The notes under the pieces were generated by a model. That model saw nothing but the letters and a program-made list of their open reading frames with translations, was not told the DNA's origin and did not search any database. A stretch of 29,440 bases of DNA from positions 1 through 29,440 of IMG/VR virus record IMGVR_UViG_3300045988_117814, one strand, 5' to 3'. Source of the DNA: a virus (Duplodnaviria; Heunggongvirae; Uroviricota; Caudoviricetes). Position numbers and translations under genes: made by a program. The first letter of the stretch is position 1. Every line of letters begins with the position of its first letter. Of the stretch, positions 2,642 to 28,766 are shown in pieces.

Positions 2642-4113
2642 CAGATGCATCGTTATCTCCTGAAGAGCAGTTAATCGAAGATATTGCAGGGTTCACTCAC
2701 GATCCTCTTGGCTATGCCCTCTATGCGTTCCCTTGGGGGGAAGAGGGGACTGAACTGGCACATGCTATCGGTCCACGTCAGTGGCAGGCCGATGCGTTCC
2801 GAGAGATACGTGATCACCTGCAGAATCCAGAGACGCGTTATCAGCCGCTTATGCTGGCACGTGCTTCTGGTCACGGTATTGGTAAATCCGCATTCATCTC
2901 AATGCTCATCAACTGGGGCATGTCCACTTGCGAGGATTGTAAGGTCGTGGTGACCGCCAACACCGACAACCAGCTACGAACGAAGACCTGGCCGGAAATT
3001 ATCAAGTGGTCGAACCTTGCTATCACGAAAGACTGGTTTACCTGTACCGCTACCGCGATGTACAGCAATGACCCTGGGCACGACAAGCGGTGGCGGGCTG
3101 ACGCAATACCCTGGTCTGAGCACAACACTGAGGCATTCGCCGGACTACACAACGAGCGCAAACGCATCATCGTGGTATTCGATGAAGCGTCGAACATTGC
3201 GGATCTGGTGTGGGAAGTTGCTGAGGGTGCGCTTACGGACGAAGACACTGAGATTATCTGGGTGGCGTTCGGAAACCCTACACGTAACACCGGGCGTTTT
3301 CGCGAATGTTTCCGCAAATATAAACACCGCTGGAAAACTGCGCAGATTGACAGCCGGACGGTGGAAGGTACTAACAAACAGCAGTTGCAGAAATGGGTTG
3401 ATGACTACGGGGAAGACAGCGACTTCGTTAAAATCCGTGTGCGCGGCATATTCCCGGATGCATCTGAATTGCAGTTTATCCCTACCGGCCTTACTGACGA
3501 GGCAATGAAACGGGTGGTAACCGCTGCGCAGGTTGCACATGCTCCGGTGATAATCGGCGTTGACCCGGCATACTCCGGCGTTGATGACGCTGTGATATAC
3601 CTGCGGCAGGGGCTGCACAGTAAGGTGCTATGGACTGGTAACAAGACCACCGACGATCTGATTATGGCGAAGCGTATCGCTGACTTTGAAGACCAGTATC
3701 AGGCTGACGCGGTGTTCATCGACTTCGGTTATGGAACCGGTTTGAAGTCAATCGGTGATGGCTGGGGACGTACATGGCAACTTGTTCCGTTCGGCGGTGC
3801 GTCCACTGACCCGCAGATGCTTAACAAGCGTGGGGAGATGTTCAACTCATGTAAGACATGGCTGAGGCTGGGCGGCATGCTGGATGACCAGGAAACTGCA
3901 GACGACCTGTCGGCGGCAGAGTACAAAGTTCGTGTGGACGGTAAAATCGTTATCGAACCGAAGGAAGATATCAAAGAGCGTCTTGGGCGTTCTCCTGGTA
4001 AAGGCGATGCGCTACTGCTGACGTTTGCTTTCCCGGTCTCGAAACGCATAAATATACCAGGACAGCAAAGCCAGCAGGGAAGGGCCATAACGGATTATGA
4101 CCCTTATGCTTAA
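2638..4113 (+). CDS. Terminase large subunit
   Basis: 491 aa; Walker-A-like GHGIGKS; typical size and position upstream of the portal; GTG start overlapping the terS stop (GTGA). Confidence 0.85.
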   Translation: MTDASLSPEEQLIEDIAGFTHDPLGYALYAFPWGEEGTELAHAIGPRQWQADAFREIRDHLQNPETRYQPLMLARASGHGIGKSAFISMLINWGMSTCEDCKVVVTANTDNQLRTKTWPEIIKWSNLAITKDWFTCTATAMYSNDPGHDKRWRADAIPWSEHNTEAFAGLHNERKRIIVVFDEASNIADLVWEVAEGALTDEDTEIIWVAFGNPTRNTGRFRECFRKYKHRWKTAQIDSRTVEGTNKQQLQKWVDDYGEDSDFVKIRVRGIFPDASELQFIPTGLTDEAMKRVVTAAQVAHAPVIIGVDPAYSGVDDAVIYLRQGLHSKVLWTGNKTTDDLIMAKRIADFEDQYQADAVFIDFGYGTGLKSIGDGWGRTWQLVPFGGASTDPQMLNKRGEMFNSCKTWLRLGGMLDDQETADDLSAAEYKVRVDGKIVIEPKEDIKERLGRSPGKGDALLLTFAFPVSKRINIPGQQSQQGRAITDYDPYA

Positions 4114-4773: not shown

Positions 4774-4850
4774 TGGCGTGGTATGCAGGATTCGAACCTG
4801 CGACCAACCGCTTAGAAGGCGGTTGCTCTGTCCAACTGAGCTAATACCAC
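4774..4850 (-). tRNA. tRNA-Arg (anticodon TCT / UCU, reads AGA)
   Basis: Reverse complement folds by hand into a canonical cloverleaf: 7-bp acceptor stem GTGGTAT/ATACCAC, D-arm GCTC/GAGC, anticodon stem ACCGC/GCGGT with loop CTTCTAA, T-arm GCAGG-TTCGAAT-CCTGC, discriminator G and encoded CCA. Confidence 0.9.
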
Positions 4851-10379: not shown

Positions 10380-10984
10380 TGGCCTCTGTAGTAGAGATCT
10401 GCAATCGTGCGCTGTCCAATATTGGCAATAGCCGCAGCATTAACAGCCTGACGGAAGCCAGCAAGGAAGCGGGGGAATGTTCGCTGCACTTTGAGGCCTG
10501 CCGTGATGCTGTGCTTTCTGATTTTGACTGGAACTTTGCTACCAAACGCGTGGCGCTTGCAGATACGAGCAATCCACCGCCTGACTGGGAATATGCGTAT
10601 CAGTACCCGTCCGATTGTCTGCGCATTACTGAAATTATGCTTCCTGGTGTACGCAATCCAACAGCAGCAATGCGCGTTCAGTACGAAGTTGGTGCAGACA
10701 CCAACGGAACAGGAAAGTTGATCTACACAGACCAGCCGCAGGCATGGCTCAAGTATGTCTCTCGCGTTTCAGATGTGAACATGTTTGATGCCATTTTTAT
10801 GGAGGCGTTGGCCTGGCGTCTTGCGGCAGCTATTAACATGGCGCTGACTGGGAATGCAGACCTCGGTACGTTTGCCCTCAATATGTACAATCGCGTGATT
10901 CTTAGTGCTGGCTCGCATAGCCAGAATGAATCACAGGAACCACAGCCACCGGTTGACGAGTTTACCATTGCGAGGTTGTCCTGA
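10379..10984 (+). CDS. Tail tubular protein A / adaptor, T7 gp11-like
   Basis: About 200 aa directly preceding an ~820-aa protein, as gp11/gp12 are in T7; N-terminal pattern N.AL..IG...I..L......DFDWNF is reminiscent of gp11. Confidence 0.65.
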   Translation: MASVVEICNRALSNIGNSRSINSLTEASKEAGECSLHFEACRDAVLSDFDWNFATKRVALADTSNPPPDWEYAYQYPSDCLRITEIMLPGVRNPTAAMRVQYEVGADTNGTGKLIYTDQPQAWLKYVSRVSDVNMFDAIFMEALAWRLAAAINMALTGNADLGTFALNMYNRVILSAGSHSQNESQEPQPPVDEFTIARLS

Positions 10985-13455
10985 TGGCTATCAGTTGGAT
11001 CCAGCCCAGCTTTGCCGGTGGTGAGATTGGACCGTCGTTGTACGGGCGTATCGACATGGCGAAGTACCAGGTGGCATTGCGCAAGTGCGATAACTTTATC
11101 GTGCGGCAGTATGGCGGCGTTGAGAATCGACCTGGTACGCGTTTTGTCGGTGCCGCCAAATACCCAAATCGGAAATGCCGCCTGATCCCGTTCCAGTTCT
11201 CGACGGTTCAGACTTATGCTCTGGAGTTCGGACACCAGTACATGCGCGTTATCAAAGATGGTGCGTTGGTGCTGAACGGCAGCAATGTTATTTATGAAAT
11301 TGCCACGCCATATACTGAAGCCGATCTGTTCCGAATTAAATTCACGCAAAGCGCAGACGTGCTTACGCTGGTTCATCCGGCATACCCGCCGAAAGAGTTG
11401 CGTCGCTATGCGCATGACAACTGGCAACTGGTTGATGTGGTAACGAAGAACGGACCATTTGAAGATATCAATATTGACGAGTCAGTGACGGTTTATGCCA
11501 GCGCCAGCACCGGGACAATTACGTTAACGGCAAGCGCCTCTATTTTTGGCTCGGAGCAGGTAGGCAAATTGTTCTATCTGGAACAGCCTGCAGTGGATTC
11601 AGTGCCGGTATGGGAAACCAGTAAGAGTACGTCGATTGACGATGTTCGCCGTGCAGACAGTAACTACTATCGCGCTGTTACAGCAGGTAAAACAGGCACT
11701 TTGCGCCCTTCGCATACAGAAGGCACATCATGGGATGGTTGGGGCGGATCCGGTGATGATGATACCGGCATTGAGTGGGAATATCTGCACAGTGGTTTTG
11801 GCATTGCCCGTATCACTGCTGCAAATGGAACTACTGCAACTGCCGAGGTGATTTCCTATATCCCTTCGCAGGTCGTTGGCGAGGATAATGCCAGCTATAA
11901 ATGGGCTAAATATGCCTGGAACAGTATTAACGGTTATCCTGGCACTGTTGTTTATTATCAACAACGTCTTTACTTCGCCGCATCGACTGTGTTCCCTCAG
12001 ACTATCTGGGCCAGCCGTACTGGGGATTATAAGGATTTTGGCAAAAGCAATCCTACGCAGGATGACGACAGAATTATCTACACCTATGCCGGGCGTCAGG
12101 TTAATGAGATCCGCCACCTGATTGATGTTGGTTCGCTGGTGGCGCTGACTTCCGGAGGTGAGTACGTCATCACCGGTGACCAGAACAAAGTATTAACCCC
12201 ATCATCATTTGCATTCAGCTCTCAGGGATCAAATGGCTCGAGCAATGTCCCACCAATTGCCGTGGCGAATATTGCTCTGTTCGTCCAGGAGAAAGGCAGT
12301 GTTGTCCGTGATCTGGCCTACTCATTCGATGTTGACGGCTATCAGGGGAACGACCTGACCATCCTTGCCAATCATCTTTTTCAGAAGCACAGCATTGTTG
12401 ACTGGTGCTTCTCTATTGTCCCTTACTCCAGCGCCTTCTGCATTCGTGATGACGGTAAATTACTGGTGATGACCTATTTGCGTGATCAGCAGGTTTTTGC
12501 ATGGGCACCACAATCCAGTACCGGAAAATATGAAAGCACATGCAGTATCAGCGAAGGCAATGAAGATGCGGTGTATTTCGTCGTTAACCGAACCGTTAAC
12601 GGGCAAACAGTGAGATACATCGAGCGGCTGTCCAGCCGTTTATTTACCAGCGATGAAGATGCTTTCTTTGTTGATTCTGGCCTTAGCTATGATGGAAGAA
12701 ATACGTCTGACAGAACGATGACCATCACTGGTGGTTCTGGTGAATGGGATTACCGTGCGGAATATACAATCAGTGTTTCTGGTGGTGCGTACTTCACCAG
12801 TAGTGATGTCGGCGCGCAACTACAGTTCCCTTATACCGGAACTTATCCTAATACTGGCGATGAGGTGTCAAAAGAATTACGTTGCGACATTATTTCTGTA
12901 ACCAGCAATACCGCTGTAGTGGTTCGTGCTAACAGGAACGTCCCGCCATCCCTCAGGAATGTGGCCACCACGAACTGGCAGATGGCGCGCCGGACATTTG
13001 GAGGCCTATCTCATCTTGAAGGCCAGACCGTAAACATTCTCTCTGATGCGAACGTGGAACCACAGAAAGTGGTTTCCGGAGGTGCCGTCACGCTGGAATC
13101 TCCGGGGGCTGTAGTGCACATCGGCCTGCCAATAACTGCTGAATTCGAAACACTGGATATCAACATTAACGGACAGGAAACGCTGCTGGACAAAAAACAG
13201 GTGATCCCCTCCGTTACTCTGGTTGTGAATGCCAGTCGCGGCATCTGGGCGACTACGCCCGGCGGTAAATGGTACGAATATCCACAGCGTGAATTCGAGT
13301 TCTACGATGATCCTGTTGATGATGCTACCGGAAAAGTAGAAGTGAAACTGGACAGTAACTGGGGCAAAAACGGACGTGTAAAAATCCGTCAGCTTGATCC
13401 GTTGCCGCTGTCTGTTCTTGCCGTTATTCCTCGCCTTACTGTTGGGGGATTCTGA
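10984..13455 (+). CDS. Tail tubular protein B / nozzle, T7 gp12-like
   Basis: 823 aa, beta-rich; start overlaps the previous stop; size and position match gp12. Confidence 0.65.
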   Translation: MAISWIQPSFAGGEIGPSLYGRIDMAKYQVALRKCDNFIVRQYGGVENRPGTRFVGAAKYPNRKCRLIPFQFSTVQTYALEFGHQYMRVIKDGALVLNGSNVIYEIATPYTEADLFRIKFTQSADVLTLVHPAYPPKELRRYAHDNWQLVDVVTKNGPFEDINIDESVTVYASASTGTITLTASASIFGSEQVGKLFYLEQPAVDSVPVWETSKSTSIDDVRRADSNYYRAVTAGKTGTLRPSHTEGTSWDGWGGSGDDDTGIEWEYLHSGFGIARITAANGTTATAEVISYIPSQVVGEDNASYKWAKYAWNSINGYPGTVVYYQQRLYFAASTVFPQTIWASRTGDYKDFGKSNPTQDDDRIIYTYAGRQVNEIRHLIDVGSLVALTSGGEYVITGDQNKVLTPSSFAFSSQGSNGSSNVPPIAVANIALFVQEKGSVVRDLAYSFDVDGYQGNDLTILANHLFQKHSIVDWCFSIVPYSSAFCIRDDGKLLVMTYLRDQQVFAWAPQSSTGKYESTCSISEGNEDAVYFVVNRTVNGQTVRYIERLSSRLFTSDEDAFFVDSGLSYDGRNTSDRTMTITGGSGEWDYRAEYTISVSGGAYFTSSDVGAQLQFPYTGTYPNTGDEVSKELRCDIISVTSNTAVVVRANRNVPPSLRNVATTNWQMARRTFGGLSHLEGQTVNILSDANVEPQKVVSGGAVTLESPGAVVHIGLPITAEFETLDININGQETLLDKKQVIPSVTLVVNASRGIWATTPGGKWYEYPQREFEFYDDPVDDATGKVEVKLDSNWGKNGRVKIRQLDPLPLSVLAVIPRLTVGGF

Positions 13456-18781: not shown

Positions 18782-21256
18782 ATGAGACAGGAATGTATAC
18801 AAGCGGTTCAGCAGGCGGCGCAGCGCACGTTAACGGCGCGAGAAATACAGAACATTGAAGACCGCATTTATCGAAATATGCGCTCCATTGCTCGTGATGA
18901 CCCGATGTCGTGGAGACAACTTTCCGAATCAGAGCGGCTATATCGAGCAGCACAATTGGCATCTGAAGAATTACAGCGAGAAGCGGCATTAAAGAAACGT
19001 CGTGTGGCTCTCACTATAGCCGCGCGTCAGAGATTGGATAAGTTTATCAATAGCTATCAAGGGGCTGATGGGAAACTTGGCGCTCTTAACCGTACTATTG
19101 CTTTTAATGCAGACGGTAAATCGAACTTCCTCTCTGTTGAGTCCAGAACAAAAGCCACTCGTGATTATGCATTGAGTCAATTGCAGGAGGCATTTGAAGC
19201 AGTAGATCCTCGCTTTTTTGGCCTGTTTGAAGATGAAGCGGGCGTGCGTGATCTGGTATATGAAATGCGAGGGCAAAATACTGGCAATTCTAAAGCAAGA
19301 AAAGGTGCTAAGGCGTGGAGAGAAGTGACAGAGCTACTGCGACGCCGGTTTAATGATGCTGGTGGGGACATTGGCTATCTCGAAAACTGGGGGATCCCTC
19401 AACATCATTCTATGGAAAAGGTTGGGGCGGTATCAAAGGATAAGTGGGTTAGCGATGTTATAGGTAAGCTGGATCGCAAATATTATATCCGAGCCGATGG
19501 ACAACTGATGAACGATGCCGAGTTGTCTGCATTTCTTGGAGAGGCTTATAACACGATCGCTACTGGTGGGCTGAATAAGCTTACTGATACCGGAATGCGA
19601 ATTTCCGGCTCACGTGCTAACCGTGGTAATGCATCACGACAGATACATTTCAAAGATGCAGATTCCTATCTGCAATATCAGCAACTTTATGGCGATCGCT
19701 CTCTATGGGAAATCATGGTCGGTCACTTGGAAGGTATCAGTAAAGATATTGCACTGGTGGAAACATATGGTCCAAACCCCGATCATGTTTTCCGCTCCCT
19801 TCTTGATCAGGTTAAGGCAGAAACGGCAACAGCTAACCCGAGTAAAACCGGTAGCGTCGAGCGTCTGGCGAACAAAACAGAGAACCTGTACAACTTTATT
19901 TCCGGAAAAACACAGCCTGTAGCGAATCCGCACATCGCGCGATGGTCTGACAATATCCGCAACTGGCTGGTTGCCAGCAGGCTCGGATCCGCGTTGCTGT
20001 CATCGTTCTCTGATCTTGGAACCATGTATCTGTCTGCGAAGGTTACCAACCTTCCAATGAACCAGTTATTCCGCAACCAGCTTGAAGCTATGGACCCAAC
20101 GAACCGTACAGAACTTGCGCGGGCGCGCCGCGCTGGTCTGGCGATGGAATCTCTACTTGGCAGCGTTAACCGCTGGGCGATGGATAATATGGGGCCGTCT
20201 GTGTCTCGTTGGGCGGCAACGGCGGTAATGCGTGCCAGTGGGCTTACAGCATGGTCAGATGCGCACAAGCGCGCCTATGGCGTAACCATGATGGGAAGCC
20301 TGGGAGAAGTAGTGTCACGGACACCAGACCTTCGTAGCCTCGATGACTCTGATTTTCGTATCCTGAAAAGCAAAGGGATTACTGACACAGACTGGAGCGT
20401 GTGGAAACTGGCGCAACAGGAGGACTGGGGGAACGGTAATAATACGATGCTGACACCGGAAAGCATTATGCGTATCCCTGATTCAGCAGTTAAACATCTT
20501 GGTGAGCCTGAACGCGTGAAATTTGAGGCAATGCGTAAACTGCTCGGTGCCGTAACTGAAGAAGTTGATATGGCTGTTATTACACCTGGCGCACGTGAGC
20601 AACTGATAACCGGTTCTGGTATTCAGCGTGGGACATGGAAAGGTGAATTAACGAGAAGTGTTTTCCTGTTTAAATCGTTCCCTATCTCGGTGGTTATGCG
20701 TCACTGGTCACGCGCTATGGGTATGCCGTCTGCTGGTGGGCGTGCGGCATATATTGCGACGTTTATTGCCAGTACGACCATTCTTGGCGCTTTGTCGCAG
20801 CAACTTAACGACCTTGCGTCTGGTCGTAATCCTCGCGAGATGACAGGAGAAGATGCTGCTAAATTTTGGCTTGGTGCTCTACTGAAAGGTGGTGGTCTTG
20901 GCCTTTACGGTGACTTTTTATTGTCAGATCACACTAGGTACGGAAGCGGCGCGCTGGCGTCGATGCTTGGCCCGGTAGCTGGTCTGGTTGATGACGTAGT
21001 GAAGATTGCTCAGGGCATACCGTTAAATGCTGTGGAAGGGAAGAATGAGCAGACTGGTGGTGATCTGGTTAAGCTGGGGAAAGGTCTGATGCCAGGTGCG
21101 AATCTCTGGTACTTAAAGGCGGCTCTCGATCACATGATCTTTAACCAGATGCAGGAGTATTTTTCACCAGGTTATTTGCGTAAAATGGAGCAACGTTCGA
21201 AGAAAGAGTTTAACCAGACATACTGGTGGCGACCTCAGGATGTCACTCCGCAATAA
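18782..21256 (+). CDS. Large internal virion / ejection protein
   Basis: 824 aa; SD GAGAGG; last large gene of the same-strand late operon, which ends at the terminator at 21426-21450. Confidence 0.65.
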   Translation: MRQECIQAVQQAAQRTLTAREIQNIEDRIYRNMRSIARDDPMSWRQLSESERLYRAAQLASEELQREAALKKRRVALTIAARQRLDKFINSYQGADGKLGALNRTIAFNADGKSNFLSVESRTKATRDYALSQLQEAFEAVDPRFFGLFEDEAGVRDLVYEMRGQNTGNSKARKGAKAWREVTELLRRRFNDAGGDIGYLENWGIPQHHSMEKVGAVSKDKWVSDVIGKLDRKYYIRADGQLMNDAELSAFLGEAYNTIATGGLNKLTDTGMRISGSRANRGNASRQIHFKDADSYLQYQQLYGDRSLWEIMVGHLEGISKDIALVETYGPNPDHVFRSLLDQVKAETATANPSKTGSVERLANKTENLYNFISGKTQPVANPHIARWSDNIRNWLVASRLGSALLSSFSDLGTMYLSAKVTNLPMNQLFRNQLEAMDPTNRTELARARRAGLAMESLLGSVNRWAMDNMGPSVSRWAATAVMRASGLTAWSDAHKRAYGVTMMGSLGEVVSRTPDLRSLDDSDFRILKSKGITDTDWSVWKLAQQEDWGNGNNTMLTPESIMRIPDSAVKHLGEPERVKFEAMRKLLGAVTEEVDMAVITPGAREQLITGSGIQRGTWKGELTRSVFLFKSFPISVVMRHWSRAMGMPSAGGRAAYIATFIASTTILGALSQQLNDLASGRNPREMTGEDAAKFWLGALLKGGGLGLYGDFLLSDHTRYGSGALASMLGPVAGLVDDVVKIAQGIPLNAVEGKNEQTGGDLVKLGKGLMPGANLWYLKAALDHMIFNQMQEYFSPGYLRKMEQRSKKEFNQTYWWRPQDVTPQ

Positions 21257-21265
21257 GGATGAGAA

Positions 21266-21406
21266 ATGATTGCTTTTATTCTTGTTGTGTTTGCTCTTGT
21301 TGCACTTGGCGTTATGAACCGTAAATGTATCATTGGTGATGGTGAATTTGCTGTTGCAGTTGTTTTGATATTATCTGGTGTAGCAGGGTACATAGGTTTG
21401 TCATAA
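21266..21406 (+). CDS. Small hydrophobic protein, 46 aa (below the ORF-track size cutoff)
   Basis: ATG at 21266 behind AAGGATGAG; translation MIAFILVVFALVALGVMNRKCIIGDGEFAVAVVLILSGVAGYIGLS; TAA at 21404-21406; terminator immediately after. Confidence 0.4.
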   Translation: MIAFILVVFALVALGVMNRKCIIGDGEFAVAVVLILSGVAGYIGLS

Positions 21407-21425
21407 CGTAAGCGTTACATGTCAC

Positions 21426-21450
21426 AGGCCGCTCTTGCGGCCTTTTCTTT
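21426..21450 (+). terminator. Rho-independent terminator ending the structural operon
   Basis: AGGCCGC-tctt-GCGGCCT hairpin followed by TTTCTTT. Confidence 0.65.
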
Positions 21451-21706
21451 ATGTGGTTTGTTTTCGTAATTGTTCGGCACAATAGTCGAGATGTGTTTGC
21501 AGATCCCGCATAGACATCTGTGAGCTGGTGACGTAGTTAATCAGTGCAGTCAGTTCGGCAAGTGGGCCATCGACATTAAATCCATCCTTATCGAGATCCC
21601 GGAGTAATTTCATCAAGTGCGATCCCTCCACCAGTGACCTGACGCCTCCCGGCGTGTGAATCCTTTCGGTAAATCCGTCTTCCAGTGGATAGTGATACTG
21701 CTGCAT
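21449..21706 (-). CDS. LexA-controlled small protein; candidate SOS-inducible antirepressor or regulator
   Basis: First ATG at 21706-21704 behind GGAGAAGATAAG on the - strand (the ORF-track start at 21724 is TTG); a near-consensus LexA box lies 22-37 nt upstream. Confidence 0.6.
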   Translation of the reverse strand: MQQYHYPLEDGFTERIHTPGGVRSLVEGSHLMKLLRDLDKDGFNVDGPLAELTALINYVTSSQMSMRDLQTHLDYCAEQLRKQTT

Positions 21707-21725
21707 CTTATCTTCTCCATGCAAT

Positions 21726-21745
21726 AACTGTATATTTATACAGTA
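21726..21745. promoter_or_regulatory. LexA (SOS) box
   Basis: AACTGTATATTTATACAGTA: CTGT-N8-ACAG with an AT-rich spacer, 18 of 20 matches to the consensus TACTGTATATATATACAGTA. Confidence 0.7.
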
Positions 21746-21901
21746 TCAAATAATTTGTTTGCTATCCAGCACGTTTTGCAAATCACCTGAAAGGTAATAT
21801 CTGTTTGTATTCATGGTCTATCTATCTATATATGGTTTTTCGGGTAATAGAATAATCGGATATGCGGCGCAACGGGTGCTGCGACTATCTGGAGATTTAA
21901 C

Positions 21902-24331
21902 ATGACGGTCTCAACCGAAGTTAACCACAACGAATACACCGGTAACGGCGTTACGACATCATTCCCTTATACCTTTAGGGTTTTCAATAAATCTGATTTA
22001 GTAGTGCAGGTGATTGACCTTGACGAGAATATCACTGTGCTGGATCTTGATACTGATTACACAGTCACTGGTGCGGGAGGGTATAACGGTGGCAATGTAA
22101 TTCTGTCGAAGGCACTGGCTAATGGTTATCAGATTTCCATATTGCGAGAACTATCGGTTACTCAGGAAACAGATCTTAGAAACCAGGGTAAGTTTTTTGC
22201 TGAGGTGCACGAAGACGCGTTTGATAAGCTAACGATGCTGATCCAGCAGGTAAGAAGTTGGTTTTCACTTGCTCTTCGTAAGCCATCTTTTGTGTCGAAT
22301 TATTATGACGCTATTAACAACTACATCAGAAATCTGCGAGACCCTGTGCGCCCACAGGATGCGGCAACTAAAAATTATGTCGATAAACTTGCTAATACAA
22401 ATCTAGGTCGTACTCTTAGAACGCCTGAGCCAATACCAAGTTTGCCTGATGCTGAGAATCGTAAAAACAAAGTGGTAGCGATGGATGACAATGGTAATCC
22501 TATTATGGTCCTTCCACAGTCTGGATCTGCATCCGATGTAATGATTCAGCTAGCAGCAAGTGATGGCTTAAAACTTATTGGCAATTGTGCTTCCATTTCT
22601 AATTTACGCAATATAGAACCAACAAATTTACAGCAAAGAATATATGTATTAGAGCATACTTTAGGCTCTGGTATTGGAGGTGGGTATTTTTATTATGATA
22701 GCACTGATTTAACAACAATTGATGATGATGGAATGATAATTGTGACGCCTGGTGGAAAGCGTTGGAAAAGAATCTGCAATGAAGTGTATGCTGATTATTA
22801 CGGAATTGTTCCTGATGGAGTAACGGATTGTCATGATAAATTGAACAAAGCACTGCAAGCGGCAAAAATGGCAACGGTGAAAGAGCTTATTCTTTCTGAA
22901 GGTACTTACGGGATTAACTCTGCACTGAAAGTACCATCTTACGTTAGATTGTGTGGGGTGGGGAAATTTAAGACCGTTATTCTAGCACTACCAACAATGC
23001 CGATAATTGAAAACTGTATTCAGAACGAGCTTTATGAATACAGGGTATTCAGGACAAACTACGATACTTCTATCCACATAGAAGACTTATGTGTAGATGC
23101 TAACAATCGAGCAAGAAATCCGTCAGAAACATGGATGGATGCCACACAGGGGACTACTATTTTATTTTCTACTGTCAGCCACAGTTCCATCAAAAACGTT
23201 TACTGTAAGCGTGGTTTGCAGCATGGTATAGATATTTGTGCTGGGTATTATTTCGATGATGGGAATATTAATAATAATGCAGTTGGTGGTAGCTATGACA
23301 TTGTTGTTGAAGACACTTTTGTTCAAAACAGTCAACTTGACGATCTCATTACAACGCATAATAGCAGTGATATTGTAATTAACCGCTGCCGAGTATGGAA
23401 CGATGACCCTGATATGGTATGGACAGGGAATCAGCATGGTATTGAAATTGATGAAGGAAGTTATAATGTTACCGTGATGGATTGTTATGCGGATGGGGTA
23501 ATGACTGGATTTCAGCAGAAGGGCCACTCAACAACAATGCCCGCAAGATGTGTTAAATTTTATAGATGTTATGCAAAAAATTGTGTTCATGGATTCCAAA
23601 TTGAGCACATTAATACAGCATCAATACCATCGGGGCGGCATCAAAATGCCAGGTATTCCGTTATAGCAAGTTGTACGGTTGAAAACGCAAACAACTCAAA
23701 ATACACATCAAACCATGCAAGGGTTGTTGAAATTTTAGGGTTCTACGGTATTTATATAAATGAATTAAGGGTTATCGGAGGTGCTGGTAATATATATATT
23801 AGCGGCGGAGCAAGATATATAAACATAGATGGCATTTTTTGGGATGGTGGATACTCAGGAGCTTCCGATACTGATGCCGAGGGATTGGTTCATATAGAAA
23901 CTGATTCAAGCTGTGATGACTACACGATAAATAACTTTATCTGTGAAGATAGCGTAAGTGTTCCATTGATTAGAGATTTGACAGACTCAAGAGTTCAAAG
24001 AGGAATAAGTAATATTAGAGGTTATGGTAAAAACGCAACAATACCAATGATAGCCATTGTCCCAAATGATGATGATAATATATCAAACATATCAACAGCT
24101 GGATCATGGCTTTGTGCTATTAATGATATGGCCAGAGCTCCAGGGACAGGAACATATAGTCAGAATGTTTCTTTTATACATGGTATTTCATTGATAAGCG
24201 GTTCAGGAACTCCTTACGGAGTTATTAATGGTAAGCCAGGAGGATTATATGTTGACAAAAACACAGGATACTTCTATCAATGCACAAGCGCAGGAAGTGG
24301 AGGATGGAAGGGGTTGGTAAGTAATCCTTAA
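21902..24331 (+). CDS. Tailspike (receptor-binding, probable O-antigen depolymerase)
   Basis: 809 aa; N-terminal particle-binding-type domain (EYTGNGVTTSFPYTF...) of the kind seen in many podovirus tailspikes, followed by an AT-rich body with beta-helix-like repeats; last structural gene. Confidence 0.8.
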   Translation: MTVSTEVNHNEYTGNGVTTSFPYTFRVFNKSDLVVQVIDLDENITVLDLDTDYTVTGAGGYNGGNVILSKALANGYQISILRELSVTQETDLRNQGKFFAEVHEDAFDKLTMLIQQVRSWFSLALRKPSFVSNYYDAINNYIRNLRDPVRPQDAATKNYVDKLANTNLGRTLRTPEPIPSLPDAENRKNKVVAMDDNGNPIMVLPQSGSASDVMIQLAASDGLKLIGNCASISNLRNIEPTNLQQRIYVLEHTLGSGIGGGYFYYDSTDLTTIDDDGMIIVTPGGKRWKRICNEVYADYYGIVPDGVTDCHDKLNKALQAAKMATVKELILSEGTYGINSALKVPSYVRLCGVGKFKTVILALPTMPIIENCIQNELYEYRVFRTNYDTSIHIEDLCVDANNRARNPSETWMDATQGTTILFSTVSHSSIKNVYCKRGLQHGIDICAGYYFDDGNINNNAVGGSYDIVVEDTFVQNSQLDDLITTHNSSDIVINRCRVWNDDPDMVWTGNQHGIEIDEGSYNVTVMDCYADGVMTGFQQKGHSTTMPARCVKFYRCYAKNCVHGFQIEHINTASIPSGRHQNARYSVIASCTVENANNSKYTSNHARVVEILGFYGIYINELRVIGGAGNIYISGGARYINIDGIFWDGGYSGASDTDAEGLVHIETDSSCDDYTINNFICEDSVSVPLIRDLTDSRVQRGISNIRGYGKNATIPMIAIVPNDDDNISNISTAGSWLCAINDMARAPGTGTYSQNVSFIHGISLISGSGTPYGVINGKPGGLYVDKNTGYFYQCTSAGSGGWKGLVSNP

Positions 24332-24379
24332 TAAATTTAATGCCGATAGATTGTTTAAGTATCCGTCGGCATTTTTTGT

Positions 24380-25381
24380 TTATTTTAGTTTTCTTAGAAT
24401 ATTTCTGCTTGGCTTTTCTACTAAATGAAATGTTAATATGGAAAACATCAGTGTAGATATAACCATAACAAACACATCATTTATATAACTAACATTTAAC
24501 CATTCAGTTATTGCATTCACTTCAAATATAAAATGCCTTTGTATCATCAGGTGCGTAAGGTAAATTGAAAAAGACAACTCCCCCAAATAATGAATAGGTT
24601 TTGTTGATAGTAACCATCCTGTTATTCCAGTGCTATAATAAAGCGATGATATATATAATCCGGTCAAAATAACAAAAACAATATCCATTCCTTTTGTTAG
24701 TAAACACGCTATTACTAAAGCCGCCAAAATATCTTGAGTATATGCAATAACATTAAATGTGTGTTTGTATTTATCAAATAAAACATAGCAACAACAACCT
24801 ATAGTGAAACCACAAACACCTCTCATTATTGAAGGGATTCCGCTATATATATCAAGTGGCCCGCTACTACCAGGGTTGTCAATTGTTGTAATATAAAACA
24901 ACATTGACATTGATGTGTAAATTATTATGAAACATAACCATTTCTTATCGGTTAATAAGAATATTAGAGGCGGAAATATTAAATACGCAATTAATTCAAC
25001 GCTAACAGACCATGATGCACCAACCATTCCATTATTAAATAAATTTTGCCACATCATAAAATTTATTATGAGATTTTGAGTTGATGGTGGCGATGATTGA
25101 TTTACTTGAATAATTATTGTTAATAATAAAACAAATAAATATAATGGATATATTCTTGAAAATCTATGCCAAATAAATTTTCCAAATTCACTAACAGATA
25201 TTTCTTGTGTGAAATTTTTAGAGTATACCATACACATTATAAATCCGCTTAATACGAAAAAAAGATCTACTGCTAGATATCCGTTCCATAGAAAAGGTAT
25301 TTTTGCGTTTGTAAAGTGATAAAGAACTACGTAAATTGCAGCTATTCCTCTAACACCTGTTAGTGATTTTATTTCTTTCAT
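24380..25381 (-). CDS. oac: Acyltransferase family 3 integral membrane protein; probable O-antigen O-acetyltransferase (lysogenic conversion)
   Basis: 333 aa, multi-pass membrane protein with hallmark motifs SLTGVRGIAAIYVVLYHF and VDLFFVLSGF; very AT-rich; convergent with the tailspike. Confidence 0.8.
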   Translation of the reverse strand: MKEIKSLTGVRGIAAIYVVLYHFTNAKIPFLWNGYLAVDLFFVLSGFIMCMVYSKNFTQEISVSEFGKFIWHRFSRIYPLYLFVLLLTIIIQVNQSSPPSTQNLIINFMMWQNLFNNGMVGASWSVSVELIAYLIFPPLIFLLTDKKWLCFIIIYTSMSMLFYITTIDNPGSSGPLDIYSGIPSIMRGVCGFTIGCCCYVLFDKYKHTFNVIAYTQDILAALVIACLLTKGMDIVFVILTGLYISSLYYSTGITGWLLSTKPIHYLGELSFSIYLTHLMIQRHFIFEVNAITEWLNVSYINDVFVMVISTLMFSILTFHLVEKPSRNILRKLK

Positions 25382-25616
25382 ATGTATTTATCTATATAAC
25401 AAATTAAAGTCAATGGATGCCAAACATCATATCATATTTGCAGCATTCTAGTCAGCACTTCACACATCATCCAACGGGGAGAGTCAAATGCTTTGCTGAT
25501 CTATTTCATTGAGATTAGTAGTGGACAAAGGTTTGCATCTGATTGCAAGGCGTTGTGCTATTAGCAGCGTATGCTTTTTAAGCGTTAAAATAAACCACCA
25601 CTAATCCATATAAGGT

Positions 25617-25630
25617 TCGCTGTGTATAAT
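25617..25630 (+). promoter_or_regulatory. Candidate extended -10 promoter for the lysis cassette
   Basis: TGTGTATAAT (TGn-TATAAT) about 20-35 nt upstream of the first lysis-cassette ORF. Confidence 0.35.
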
Positions 25631-25647
25631 GAACTCACTAGCTAAGA

Positions 25648-26082
25648 GTGTCATTATGCTCAAAAATGGTGGTTTTTATGTCAATACAGTTAACCAATGA
25701 ATCTTTAAATCAGTGGCTTAGCGTTGGTTCTTTAGTGTCGGTGATAGCAGGAGTTCCTCCAGAGGTCGCTTTGGGATCTTTGGCTGGTGCGGTAATTTTT
25801 GTTACCTCTGCAGTAGAATACCCAATCCGTCGTCGTGTTCTTCTGTCGATGCTCAGCTTCCTCTGCGGCCTTCTCTTTTACAAACCAGCAGCATCAATTC
25901 TTATCGGCATAGCCAGCCTGATCCCTACCATCACGCAGGACTCATTCGAGAAAGGGATTGCATTTTCTACAGGTGCGTTCGTGTCGGCAATTGTCGCCGT
26001 TCGTATTGGTATATGGCTCTATCATCGTTCTGATAATCCACGCGAGTTGATTCCTGGGAGAAAAGACGATGGTAACGCATGA
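25648..26082 (+). CDS. Multi-pass membrane protein heading the lysis cassette (holin-associated or other membrane function)
   Basis: Four or five hydrophobic helices. Start uncertain: GTG at 25648, ATG at 25666 or 25678. Confidence 0.5.
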   Translation: MSLCSKMVVFMSIQLTNESLNQWLSVGSLVSVIAGVPPEVALGSLAGAVIFVTSAVEYPIRRRVLLSMLSFLCGLLFYKPAASILIGIASLIPTITQDSFEKGIAFSTGAFVSAIVAVRIGIWLYHRSDNPRELIPGRKDDGNA

Positions 26083-26377
26083 GATTTTTTTGCTTATCAC
26101 CAATGCAGTTATTTGTACTGGCATAGCTATTCGTGTTGTTACTTTCCGGCGCAATGGATCTCAACACCGACGATGGGGTGGCTGGCTTGCTTATTTCCTG
26201 ATTGTTGCTGCGGCTAGTATTCCGGTTCGTGTCGCCTATGCAATCTGGTTCAGCATGCCAATGGCAGTGGATTTATCTGAGGTCATTATCAACGTAGTCA
26301 TGCTTGCTGCGGTTATTAAAACACGCGGTAACGTCGTTCAGATTTTCAAATTAGCGAGGTCTAAACATGGAGATTAA
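26069..26377 (+). CDS. Holin (three transmembrane segments, class I-like)
   Basis: ATG behind GGGAGAAAAG; three hydrophobic helices and a charged C-terminus; immediately upstream of the endolysin. Confidence 0.6.
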   Translation: MVTHEIFLLITNAVICTGIAIRVVTFRRNGSQHRRWGGWLAYFLIVAAASIPVRVAYAIWFSMPMAVDLSEVIINVVMLAAVIKTRGNVVQIFKLARSKHGD

Positions 26378-26996
26378 ACAATTTCAGCGAGCTGCTGGTA
26401 TCAGCGAGTCGCTGGCCGACCGCTGGTTCTCGCATATAATTTCTGCGATGAAAGAGTTTGGTATCAGCAAAACCGAAGATCAGGCAATGTTTATTGCTCA
26501 GGTCGGGCATGAGTCTGTGGGCTTCACTCGGTTGCAGGAGAATTTCAACTACAGCGTCAGCGGACTGGTTAACTTCGTTCGGGCTGGGCGTCTCACTCAG
26601 GGACAGGCCAACGTATTGGGGCGACGCGCAGGCGAACCACCATTGTCACTTGAGCGCCAGCGCGCGATCGCAAATCTGGTGTACAGCAAACGCATGGGGA
26701 ACAATGCTCCCGGCGATGGCTGGAATTACCGTGGGCGCGGACTTATCCAGATTACCGGTTTGAATAACTATCGTGACTGTGGAAACGGTCTGAAGGTTGA
26801 CCTGCTGGAGAGTCCTGAACTGCTGGCTCAGGACGAATATGCGGCTCGTAGCGCGGCGTGGTTTTTCTCCAGCAAAGGCTGCATGAAGTATACCGGCGAT
26901 ATTGCACGTGTAACTCTGATTATCAATGGTGGCCGGAACGGCATCGACGACAGGCGTGAGCGATACATCACTGCCAGTAAGGTGCTGGCGATATGA
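26367..26996 (+). CDS. Endolysin, glycoside hydrolase family 19 (chitinase-like lysozyme)
   Basis: Motifs FIAQVGHESVGF and YRGRGLIQITGLNNY typical of GH19-type phage endolysins; start overlaps the holin end. Confidence 0.8.
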   Translation: MEIKQFQRAAGISESLADRWFSHIISAMKEFGISKTEDQAMFIAQVGHESVGFTRLQENFNYSVSGLVNFVRAGRLTQGQANVLGRRAGEPPLSLERQRAIANLVYSKRMGNNAPGDGWNYRGRGLIQITGLNNYRDCGNGLKVDLLESPELLAQDEYAARSAAWFFSSKGCMKYTGDIARVTLIINGGRNGIDDRRERYITASKVLAI

Positions 26997-27475
26997 TCTT
27001 GGCATTCGTAAAAGCATACTGGAAACAGTTGGTTATCGTGGCGATGCTTGCTGTTTTGACTCTATCAGGAGTTGTTGCCTGGAATGTGCATGGTAGCCGA
27101 CAGTACGACGCCGGGTATGCACAGGCGAAGGAAGAGCGCAAAGCCGAAGATGAGAAAGTTCGTCAGCACTACGAACAGGAGAAAGCGATCAATGAACGTA
27201 AAGCGCAACAGAGGATCGACCAGGCGCGCAATGATGCTCTTGATGCTGCCGCTCGCGCTGGCCGGTTGCAGCAACAGCTCGTTGCCATCCGTGAGCAACT
27301 CAGGCAGTATAACGCCATTGTCGGCGCTGGGACGTCAGCCGCAGACACCGGAGTTTTGCTTGCCGACGTGCTCAGCAAATCTCTCGAGAGAAACAGACAA
27401 CTGGCAGAGTATGCTGACCGGGCAGCCGAAGCCGGAAGAGTCTGTGAAAAACAGTACGACACCCTGACCAGATAG
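26993..27475 (+). CDS. Rz: Rz-type inner-membrane spanin (i-spanin)
   Basis: N-terminal TM helix (LVIVAMLAVLTLSGVVAW) followed by a long charged coiled coil; ATGA overlap with the endolysin. Confidence 0.8.
   Translation: MILAFVKAYWKQLVIVAMLAVLTLSGVVAWNVHGSRQYDAGYAQAKEERKAEDEKVRQHYEQEKAINERKAQQRIDQARNDALDAAARAGRLQQQLVAIREQLRQYNAIVGAGTSAADTGVLLADVLSKSLERNRQLAEYADRAAEAGRVCEKQYDTLTR
27192..27467 (+). CDS. Rz1: Rz1-type outer-membrane lipoprotein spanin (o-spanin), embedded in the +1 frame of Rz
   Basis: Basic n-region, hydrophobic core and lipobox (MNVKRNRGSTRRAMMLLMLPLALAGC), then a Pro/Ser-rich periplasmic part; alternative ATG at 27231. Confidence 0.65.
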   Translation: MNVKRNRGSTRRAMMLLMLPLALAGCSNSSLPSVSNSGSITPLSALGRQPQTPEFCLPTCSANLSRETDNWQSMLTGQPKPEESVKNSTTP

Positions 27476-27556
27476 CATGGCATTTTTCATGGTACTGATT
27501 TCCGGTGACGGTATATAAAACGGTATGAGAAAAATGAAGTTTTGGAAAAATGTTAT

Positions 27557-27600
27557 CACTCAATTGGTTATGGTTGTCGTAAATAATTGAGTGGGAATGA
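27557..27600. other. Probable attR junction: inverted repeat overlapping a remnant of the guaA 3' end
   Basis: Inverted repeat CACTCAATT-N19-AATTGAGTG (27557-27593); ATT GAG TGG GAA TGA (27586-27600) encodes ...IEWE-stop but is preceded by an in-frame TAA. Confidence 0.4.
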
Positions 27601-27624
27601 TTTGACCCTGCACTATGAATGAAC

Positions 27625-27656
27625 AAAACCCTCTGTTACTACAGAGGGTTTTTTAT
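27625..27656. terminator. Bidirectional rho-independent terminator (chromosomal, between guaA remnant and yfgI)
   Basis: AAAACCCTCTGT-tact-ACAGAGGGTTTT hairpin flanked by an A-run and a T-run. Confidence 0.7.
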
Positions 27657-27692
27657 CTTCAAGAATTATAGGATTGAAGTTACTAACATCGA

Positions 27693-28232
27693 TTAATTAA
27701 ACCAGCTGTCCGATTTGTTCTCTTCTGCTTTGCCCACGCTTTTCATCAGATCGCGACCGCCTTCAGTCATATTTCTGTTGGCGTCAGCTTCAGATTGCAC
27801 CACATCGGTTTGCGCAGCTTTGTGCTTCAGTTCCTGATCGATAAATTCGTTTTCTCGCTTAACGCGGGCTTCTTCTTTCGCCAGCGCCAGTTTTTGTTTC
27901 TGAATCTCTAAGCTGCGTAGCTCATCTTCATAACTTTGATCGCGTTTTTTGTCCGCAGAGGCTTCGGCGTCCAGTTTATCCTGACGAGCTTTCTTATTTG
28001 CCGCTGCCGTTGCCGCTCTTTTGTTAGCGGCGGCCTGGGCATTTGCGCGACGTTGCTTCTCTTGCTGGATTTCCCTGTTGCGCTCCGCGACCCATTCGTC
28101 ATGCTGCCTTTGCTCTTCATTTTTACCTTGCTGTTCCGCTTCTGCGACAGCAGAGAGTTGATCCTGCAATGATGAGGCGATAGCCGGATAGCTTAAGGAG
28201 GCTAAGATGGCGCAAAGAAAAACTTTCTTCAT
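27693..28232 (-). CDS. yfgI: Chromosomal secreted/periplasmic protein, YfgI-like
   Basis: 179 aa; signal peptide (MKKVFLCAILASLSYPAIA) then a charged coiled coil; size and neighbour order match the E. coli yfgG-yfgH-yfgI locus as I recall it. Confidence 0.65.
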   Translation of the reverse strand: MKKVFLCAILASLSYPAIASSLQDQLSAVAEAEQQGKNEEQRQHDEWVAERNREIQQEKQRRANAQAAANKRAATAAANKKARQDKLDAEASADKKRDQSYEDELRSLEIQKQKLALAKEEARVKRENEFIDQELKHKAAQTDVVQSEADANRNMTEGGRDLMKSVGKAEENKSDSWFN

Positions 28233-28247
28233 GACTCCTCCTGATTA

Positions 28248-28766
28248 TTAGCTCTTTTCAGGACATTTGGTATTTGGCTGAATACGCGTTTCGTTATACG
28301 TCGTGGTAATAACAACGGCTAAACCTGTCGTAAACTGGCACTCTTTACCCACCTGGGTAGAGGTATACACTTTGGTGCCTTCCTTATAGGTTAAAGAAAC
28401 ACCTTCCACTAAGGTTTTATCATTCACCATAGAACCCGCTGCCGCGCCTACAGCTCCGCCGCCAACTGCACCTGCCGTCGTTCCGGAATTGCTGCCAGAC
28501 CCGACGTTGTGGCCGATAACACCGCCAGCGACTGCGCCAATAAGCGCGCCGAAGGCTTGTGCGTTCCGTTTATTTTGGGAGTTGTCTACGGCAACTTTTG
28601 CGGGAAGAATGGAAATAATATTAACGGTTTTAGTTTCTTGTTTGGTATTCAGTTGATCGGTTTGATAAACATCGGCGGCATGATCGTCAGCATTTGACTG
28701 GCATCCTGCCAGAGTGAATGACGCTAACATTGCTACAGGCAGAAGACATTTTTTAAATTTCATCAC
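28248..28766 (-). CDS. yfgH: Outer-membrane lipoprotein with a glycine-zipper segment, YfgH-like
   Basis: 172 aa; lipobox LAGC; Gly-rich stretch GALIGAVAGGVIGHNVGSG...GAVGGGAVGAAAG. Confidence 0.7.
   Translation of the reverse strand: MMKFKKCLLPVAMLASFTLAGCQSNADDHAADVYQTDQLNTKQETKTVNIISILPAKVAVDNSQNKRNAQAFGALIGAVAGGVIGHNVGSGSNSGTTAGAVGGGAVGAAAGSMVNDKTLVEGVSLTYKEGTKVYTSTQVGKECQFTTGLAVVITTTYNETRIQPNTKCPEKS

Follow-up and report, generated by a model that had tools for sequence, protein, structure and literature searches.

The right attachment junction (attR) of a phiV10/epsilon15-type prophage in the last codons of Escherichia coli guaA

The locus described here raises the question of where a prophage ends and its host chromosome begins, and of how the boundary between them was formed. 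The window (i.e., the whole 29,440-nt stretch of DNA that was analysed, positions 1 to 29,440 of IMG/VR record IMGVR_UViG_3300045988_117814) carries phage genes that end with a pair of spanins, after which a few bases read I-E-W-E-stop and chromosomal genes follow. A preliminary description took these bases for the last codons of guaA (GMP synthase), preserved at a prophage-chromosome junction. We conclude with very high confidence that positions 27476-27660 represent the attR (P-O-B') of a phiV10/epsilon15-type (Uetakevirus) prophage that entered the final codons of E. coli guaA by site-specific recombination. The name attR follows from the P-O-B' order under the lambda convention and from the usage for phage ZX5. 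This att site, known from a well-studied phage group, has already been published: for vB_EcoP_ZX5, a core attgagtgggaatgatt with attB at the guaA 3' end was reported, and attB, attL and attR were established by PCR and Sanger sequencing (PMC9782041). A passage of the same paper, which cites Perry 2009 and Kropinski 2007, gives the same sequence for the attP sites of phiV10 and epsilon15.

Identity of the junction and extent of the att core

In a megablast comparison of window positions 27300-28300 with 5,426 complete E. coli genomes, prophage-free strains, numbering in the thousands, matched from exactly 27586 onward with up to 100% identity, K-12 BW25113 and BL21 being 100% identical from this base through yfgI and yfgH (the minus-strand gene order to the right of the junction is yfgI, yfgH, yfgG). 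In K-12, guaA is convergent with yfgI, and the bases from 27586 are the final codons of the annotated guaA gene, so the GuaA C-terminus had been recognised correctly, and the uninterrupted guaA-yfgI locus does hold this sequence at the corresponding position. Read side by side, attB has the form ...GCTACC / ATTGAGTGGGAATGATT / TGACCC..., attL of the related PSS-13 prophage has the form ...GCTACC / ATTGAGTGGGAATGATT / AACAGC..., and attR of the window has the form ...GTAAATA / ATTGAGTGGGAATGATT / TGACCC.... Since the same 17 bp are found at attB, attL and attR with divergence at their edges, the duplicated core is 17 bp long and occupies 27586-27602, which fixes the right prophage boundary at 27585/27586-27602 (Table 1). 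The published attP/attB core (PMC9782041) is identical to these window positions. In the free phages phiV10 and epsilon15, the segment between Rz and int consists of a P arm, an identical 17-bp core and a P' arm, and alignment of the P arm demonstrates its conservation in epsilon15, SPN1S, BUCT554, TL-2011b and one Klebsiella prophage. The proposal that integration at the guaA 3' end is of the kind known in epsilon15-like phages therefore agrees with both the three-way att comparison and the published core.

The string ATT GAG TGG GAA TGA is present at 27586-27600 as described, preceded by the in-frame TAA (27580-27582) and then ATA, and the Rz-like DUF2514 spanin ends at 27475, ahead of the junction. 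Two parts of the preliminary description need to be amended. The I-E-W-E-stop codons indeed belong to guaA, but the shared segment comprises 17 bp rather than 15 and extends two bases beyond the stop codon. Likewise, the last guaA codons are preserved at attR, but only as a non-coding duplicate, guaA itself being kept at attL. The ORF list contains no plus-strand ORF of at least 30 aa over the I-E-W-E-stop remnant. An Rfam scan of 27300-27800 (E<=1) returned only sub-threshold noise, and a promoter scan of 27300-27900 identified no promoters.

Table 1. Features of the attR junction and its surroundings (window coordinates)
Feature	Position	Strand	Basis
Rz-like inner-membrane spanin (DUF2514), last prophage gene before the junction	26993..27475	+	Pfam E=4.6e-43; annotated Rz-like in phiV10 and epsilon15
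Embedded Rz1-like outer-membrane lipoprotein spanin, lipobox LALAGC	27192..27467	+	Coordinate transfer from phiV10 Rz1 (L004 2693-2968)
P arm of attR, phage-derived, left of the core	27476..27585		phiV10 attP has a near-identical left half; no counterpart in prophage-free E. coli
Arm-type integrase-binding motif GTGACGGTAT, 10 bp, predicted	27505..27514	+	Conservation, P' repeat, epsilon15 annotation
Shorter second arm-type repeat AACGGTAT, putative binding site	27519..27526	+	Read from the sequence; ACGGTA in 7/7 P arms
Predicted IHF-consensus site	27554..27576	+	Near-consensus matches at 27554 and 27558; epsilon15 IHF feature L003 3055-3077
Second predicted IHF-like site, with ACTCAATTATTTA at 27580-27592	27574..27596	-	Consensus match; epsilon15 IHF feature L003 3075-3097
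Common att core ATTGAGTGGGAATGATT, 17 bp	27586..27602		Same in attB (K-12), attL (PSS-13), attR (window) and attP (phiV10, epsilon15); flanks diverge at once
Strand-exchange interval ATTGAGTGGGA, 11 bp	27586..27596		Klebsiella lysogen, attL versus attR
Duplicate of the last four guaA codons and stop (I-E-W-E-stop), non-coding here	27586..27600	+	Sequence; K-12 comparison; in-frame TAA at 27580-27582
B' host flank, guaA-yfgI intergenic region	27603..27692		100% identity to K-12 and BL21
Host bidirectional intrinsic terminator common to convergent guaA and yfgI	27625..27652		Terminator scan and folding
yfgI, DUF5384, 179 aa, first host gene past the prophage	27693..28232	-	ORF; K-12 alignment

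The left junction in related prophages

The edge of the window lies about 10 kb short of the left junction, and attL (intact guaA, core, P' arm, epsilon15-type integrase) was read in the PSS-13 prophage and in a Klebsiella prophage record. The right junction of PSS-13 is 99.8% identical to that of the window, and in PSS-13 guaB and intact guaA are followed by a tyrosine integrase gene and some 38 kb of phage genes, the last of which form the matching lysis cassette, and then by yfgI. At its left junction, intact guaA is followed by the core, the P' arm and the integrase, so that the matching core called for at the left prophage end is found in this relative. The guaA protein of PSS-13 has the same accession as that of K-12 (WP_000138270.1). 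In these sequences, the guaA frame stays intact at attL, with phage DNA supplying or duplicating the end of the gene. Junctions of this kind are common: 544 of the 5,426 complete E. coli genomes have an attR-type junction and 568 have an attL-type junction. The guaA 3' end is thus an often-used insertion site, such junctions occurring in roughly one tenth of the complete E. coli genomes.

Two of the records used for comparison include host DNA. The 'complete phage genome' record JQ011317.1 (TL-2011b, L008) is a prophage excerpt with ORFs at the positions of yfgI and yfgH, and MK422448.1 (L005/L009) is a prophage excerpt that includes host xseA, guaB and guaA. The ends of these records are therefore not phage termini, a caveat when they are used as phage references.

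The prophage and its relatives

The element is syntenic with phiV10 and epsilon15 from the terminase through portal, capsid, tailspike, holin, endolysin and spanins. The genes ahead of the Rz-like spanin are a holin pair and a family-19 glycoside hydrolase endolysin, and the Rz1 frame with its lipobox is visible in the translation of ORF 27072-27467. In the phage database, the segment comprising the lysis cassette and P arm (26300-27602) demonstrates 93.9% identity to phiV10 and 81.6% identity to epsilon15. When positions 21000-27700 were compared with the 5,426 complete E. coli genomes, none reached at least 80% coverage, the best covering 58%.

Part of this segment is occupied by a tailspike (809 aa, with a pectate-lyase-like domain) and a divergent Acyl_transf_3 acyltransferase (333 aa), located at 21902-25381; the tailspike/acyltransferase module has no match among the same 5,426 genomes. 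By analogy with Oac of phiV10, the acyltransferase probably performs O-antigen acetylation, and the module probably represents a serotype-specific receptor-binding and conversion cassette. A prophage-borne tRNA-Arg gene (anticodon TCT) is located at 4774-4850 on the minus strand, between the terminase and portal regions, and the annotation of the PSS-13 prophage has a tRNA-Arg in the equivalent position.

A genuine junction may also be left behind by a defective or cryptic prophage that is unable to excise, in which case attR would be a fossil. The left third of the element (int, an excisionase candidate and the repressor) lies beyond the window, and the exact prophage is present in none of the complete E. 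coli genomes, as would suit such a relic. However, the P arm, arm-type site, IHF-like sites and core within the window are all intact relative to phiV10 attP, the large ORFs are uninterrupted and match the structural genes of PSS-13 in order and size, and related lysogens release phage spontaneously (ZX5, PMC9782041). We consider a defective prophage unlikely.

Limits of the strand exchange

The Klebsiella phage ST512-KPC3phi13.3 record (MK422448.1) holds both junctions of one lysogen (L009 5999-6015 and L005 1987-2003). Its attL reads ATTGAGTGGGA-ATGATT, which is of the phage type, and its attR reads ATTGAGTGGGA-GTAATC, which is of the host type. Only the 11 bp ATTGAGTGGGA are duplicated, and consequently both strand exchanges in that lysogen fell within ATTGAGTGGGA. 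In the same lysogen, the last guaA codon has changed from GAG to GAA, a synonymous replacement, and the stop codon has changed from TAA to TGA, which is direct evidence that the phage supplies the end of guaA at attL. A crossover at the same guaA end was reported for GIsul2 at GAGTGGGA (PMC9376610), which agrees with the 11-bp interval and falls inside it.

Candidate integrase- and IHF-binding motifs

The integrase gene itself lies outside the window, and its domains were taken from the protein of the related PSS-13 prophage, where Pfam recognises Arm-DNA-bind_3 (E=4e-20), Phage_int_M and Phage_integrase. This composition points to a heterobivalent integrase, as in lambda-type integrases. The predicted arm-type motif GTGACGGTAT occurs as a single exact copy in the window, at 27505-27514, and is conserved in every one of the seven P arms compared, from phages and prophages alike; the phages that retain it come from four host genera, namely Escherichia, Salmonella, Enterobacter and Klebsiella. 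The P' arm of attL and attP has it again, together with an inverted copy ATACCGTCA, and the epsilon15 record (AY150271.2) has an integrase protein_bind feature annotated at the homologous position (L003 3006-3015).

Between the arm-type motifs and the core, the string ACTCAATTGGTTA at 27558-27570 matches the IHF consensus WATCAANNNNTTR at 12 of 13 positions. One-mismatch matches to this consensus number 31 in the window, three of them beside the core (27554, 27558 and, on the minus strand, 27580), and these three coincide with the two predicted epsilon15 IHF features when the latter are transferred to 27554-27576 and 27574-96. Every consensus-specified base of the left site (27554-27576) is invariant in the seven phage sequences. 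The proposed binding of Int and IHF to the motifs named here, like the placement of the cleavage sites, is drawn from consensus matches, conservation and database annotation.

The inverted repeat beside the core

The preliminary description had also pointed to a 9-bp inverted repeat with a 19-nt spacer. It is present: CACTCAATT at 27557-27565 and AATTGAGTG at 27585-27593 are perfectly complementary and 19 nt apart, and the left and right arms overlap the predicted IHF sites at 27554-27576 and 27574-27596, respectively, the latter site also covering the start of the core. The further claim that the repeat straddles the crossover does not hold. The 19-nt spacer (27566-27584) consists solely of phage DNA and is unlike attB, so no exchange is possible there.

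The repeat might nevertheless be functional in itself, as a pair of core-type integrase sites around the crossover or as a hairpin or cruciform recognised in recombination. Its perfect 9 bp extend, in a repeat search, to 14-nt arms with 86% complementarity. Among six relatives, drawn from four host genera, the left arm is complementary at eight or nine of nine positions in five, where it reads CACTCAATT or CAGTCAATT. The CACTCAAT motif is also present in the P-like arm of another element at the guaA site (L041, see below). Against these observations stand the phage-only spacer, which makes exchange between the arms impossible, and its length, since 19 nt is far above the 6-8 bp overlap of tyrosine recombinases. 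The left arm of epsilon15, AATTCAATA, is identical at only five of nine positions. The sole variable base of the left arm, 27559 (C, G or T), varies where the repeat needs C and is also the sole mismatch to the IHF consensus, whereas the IHF-consensus positions are all invariant. Similar repeats are not rare: the window has eight perfect 9-mer inverted seeds with a gap of 5-40 nt, compared with 3.9 +/- 2.3 in shuffled sequences, and the inverted repeat by itself is statistically unremarkable. Moreover, a relaxase island on the same core lacks the repeat. With its phage-only and overly wide spacer, its degeneracy in epsilon15 and no enrichment over chance, the repeat was rejected as a pair of core-type Int sites, and a function of the repeat as such is improbable. 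In our reading, the left arm is instead an IHF site, and the complementarity of its TCAAT core to ATTGA in the att core is fortuitous, although the arm may serve as an extra Int-binding copy.

A second copy of the core start

The first 13 nt of the core (ATTGAGTGGGAAT) recur exactly at 11770-11782, in the same orientation and in frame (I-E-W-E-Y), within the gene of an 823-aa virion protein (10984-13455); the expected number of such matches in a window is about 0.001. We considered this copy as a secondary att site and rejected it, because it is not kept in the PSS-13 prophage and is thus probably due to chance. The notion that the I-E-W-E-stop match at the junction is itself coincidental and that the boundary lies elsewhere (e.g., for an element inserted between guaA and yfgI, with no duplication and the end of guaA upstream of the whole prophage) draws on the weakness of fifteen bases alone as an identifier and on this unrelated copy, which arose by apparent chance, but its probability is negligible, the comparison of host, attL and attR having already refuted it with the same 17 bp at all three sites, divergence exactly at their edges and equality with the published core.

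Terminators at the two junctions and the origin of attP

The strong bidirectional terminator followed by yfgI, as previously noted to the right of the junction, was recovered at 27625-27652 by both scanning and folding. Its hairpin has a folding energy of -20.1 kcal/mol on the plus strand and -20.5 kcal/mol on the minus strand (z about -6; 0 of 200 shuffled sequences were as good), with U-rich tracts next to it on both strands. A related hairpin is carried by the phage itself. The P' arm contains CCCTCTGT-TTTT-ACAGAGGG (-15.9 kcal/mol, z -5.3), and the host guaA/yfgI terminator, CCCTCTGT-TACT-ACAGAGGG, shares all 8 bp of this stem. The phage hairpin is located at L002 8079-8105 in attL of PSS-13 and at about 3148-3180 in phiV10 (L004) and epsilon15 (L003). 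When attB and six P' arms were aligned, only one base of the hairpin varied, an A or G in its 3' arm.

A pattern scan of genome contigs for such loci returned 98 matches, about three quarters of which were chance occurrences in unrelated phyla, and only the 23 with the full hairpin were used. The guaA 3' end was also recognised by tblastn at 21 of these 23 loci (native loci L013-L108), which belong to Escherichia, Klebsiella, Raoultella, Citrobacter, Enterobacter, Pluralibacter, Buttiauxella, Pseudescherichia, Rouxiella, Dryocola and others. No integrase match was found at any of the 23 full-hairpin loci, and the arm-type motif was absent from all eight of them that were checked. Many native guaA loci have the exact TTTT loop of the phage, and over the 24 nt that follow the core, the P' arm of Enterobacter phage BUCT554 agrees at 22 positions with the sequence that natively flanks guaA in Enterobacter sp. 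R1(2018) (L039). These similarities suggest, with an even chance in our estimate, that phage attP is a diverged and portable copy of the whole enterobacterial guaA 3' end, comprising the last codons, the spacer and the terminator. One possible scenario is that an ancestral phage took the segment from an Enterobacter-like host, whereby it would re-terminate guaA and insulate int. It is also possible that recombination between phage and host hairpins deletes prophages, in which case phage-type flanks in host chromosomes would be scars.

Proposed integration mechanism

The relationships among the att sites, the integrase domains and the conservation of motifs come from this analysis, and integration and excision at the core were established by others. 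On this combined basis, we propose that a heterobivalent tyrosine integrase, with an N-terminal arm-binding domain and a catalytic domain, would bind the core and, in both the P and the P' arm, repeats of the arm type (GTGACGGTAT), probably assisted by IHF, which would bend the DNA beside the core. Strand exchange between attP and attB would take place inside ATTGAGTGGGAATGATT, most likely within ATTGAGTGGGA. One product, attL, has in the relatives the order guaA-core-P'-int, with the GuaA protein sequence unchanged and a phage-borne terminator after the gene; for the prophage of the window, the expected sequence is guaA-ATTGAGTGGGAATGATT-AACAGCTAACTCAT...-int. The other product, attR, has the order Rz-P-core-B', in which the non-coding duplicate of the guaA end precedes the original guaA/yfgI terminator. 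After integration, a terminator would thus stand to the right of the core at both junctions: the phage P' terminator would end guaA transcription and shield int, and the host terminator at 27625-27652 would end the prophage lysis-gene transcript in the lysogen.

Comparison with known systems and other elements at the guaA site

The closest known systems are the Uetakevirus phages phiV10, epsilon15 and vB_EcoP_ZX5, with which the window shares the 17-bp core ATTGAGTGGGAATGATT, the chromosomal target and the flanking host genes. Its P arm is homologous to those of phiV10 (near-identical) and epsilon15 (conserved), the gene order Rz-attP-int is alike, and the att site of the window differs from those of the group by a few P-arm substitutions only. 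Beyond the att site, no complete E. coli genome searched has a tailspike C-terminal part or an acyltransferase module like those of the window. Phage TL-2011b was also reported to be inserted in guaA (PMC3293862).

The same guaA end is used by GIsul2, CMGI-3 and related islands. One published survey of tyrosine recombinases groups the epsilon15 integrase with CMGI-3 and related elements in a single cluster that targets the guaA 3' flank, and the integrases of GIsul2/CMGI-3-type islands fall into this 'epsilon15 cluster' (PMC8138268). Such islands carry conjugation, mobilisation or resistance genes, whereas the element in the window is a complete-looking podovirus prophage; an assignment to the GIsul2/CMGI-3 type was rejected on the basis of its phage gene content, syntenic with phiV10 and epsilon15.

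Two further elements were observed at this site. In E. coli SCPM-O-B-7615 (NZ_CP144926.1, L010 1-4020), a non-phage element encoding a TraI/MobA relaxase and a P-loop NTPase abuts yfgI at the core ATTGAGTGGGAATGATT, and its arm contains ATGGTATTTTTCATGGT, shared with the phage P arm sequence ATGGCATTTTTCATGGT (window 27477-27493). The presence of a relaxase island at an identical core indicates that the guaA 3' end is common to several types of elements. A Pseudescherichia metagenome-assembled genome (L041, about 606-800, minus orientation) has a P-like arm with CACACTCAATC about 35 nt left of the core, after which come ATTGAGTGGGAATGATG and a host-like flank in which the terminator hairpin is again present. 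This locus has no guaA upstream and therefore looks like the attR of a distinct element.

In comparison with lambda attP, the likeness consists of a separate arm-binding domain, arm-type motifs in both arms, predicted IHF sites adjacent to the core and int beside attP. The family represented in the window differs from lambda in its P4/SXT-like integrase subfamily, in its core, and in a target within a gene end rather than in an intergenic region. Phage 21 and e14 are reported by Campbell and co-workers to integrate into icd with a phage-borne substitute 3' end. As with these elements, the prophage enters an essential or housekeeping gene inside its 3' end and brings a replacement end that keeps the gene functional. 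In contrast to phage 21 and e14, only four codons and the stop are concerned here, the protein is unchanged in E. coli, and phages of the window type add a terminator that matches the host one throughout its stem.

Outside correct annotation, the junction has little significance. Its core is also the site of at least one unrelated island. What is added here to the published att site is the 11-bp limit of the crossover, the reading of the inverted repeat as an IHF site and the phage-borne copy of the guaA terminator, which may aid the engineering of integrases and att sites or the tracing of the origin of attP. For the lysogens themselves, the arrangement means that guaA is left undisrupted.
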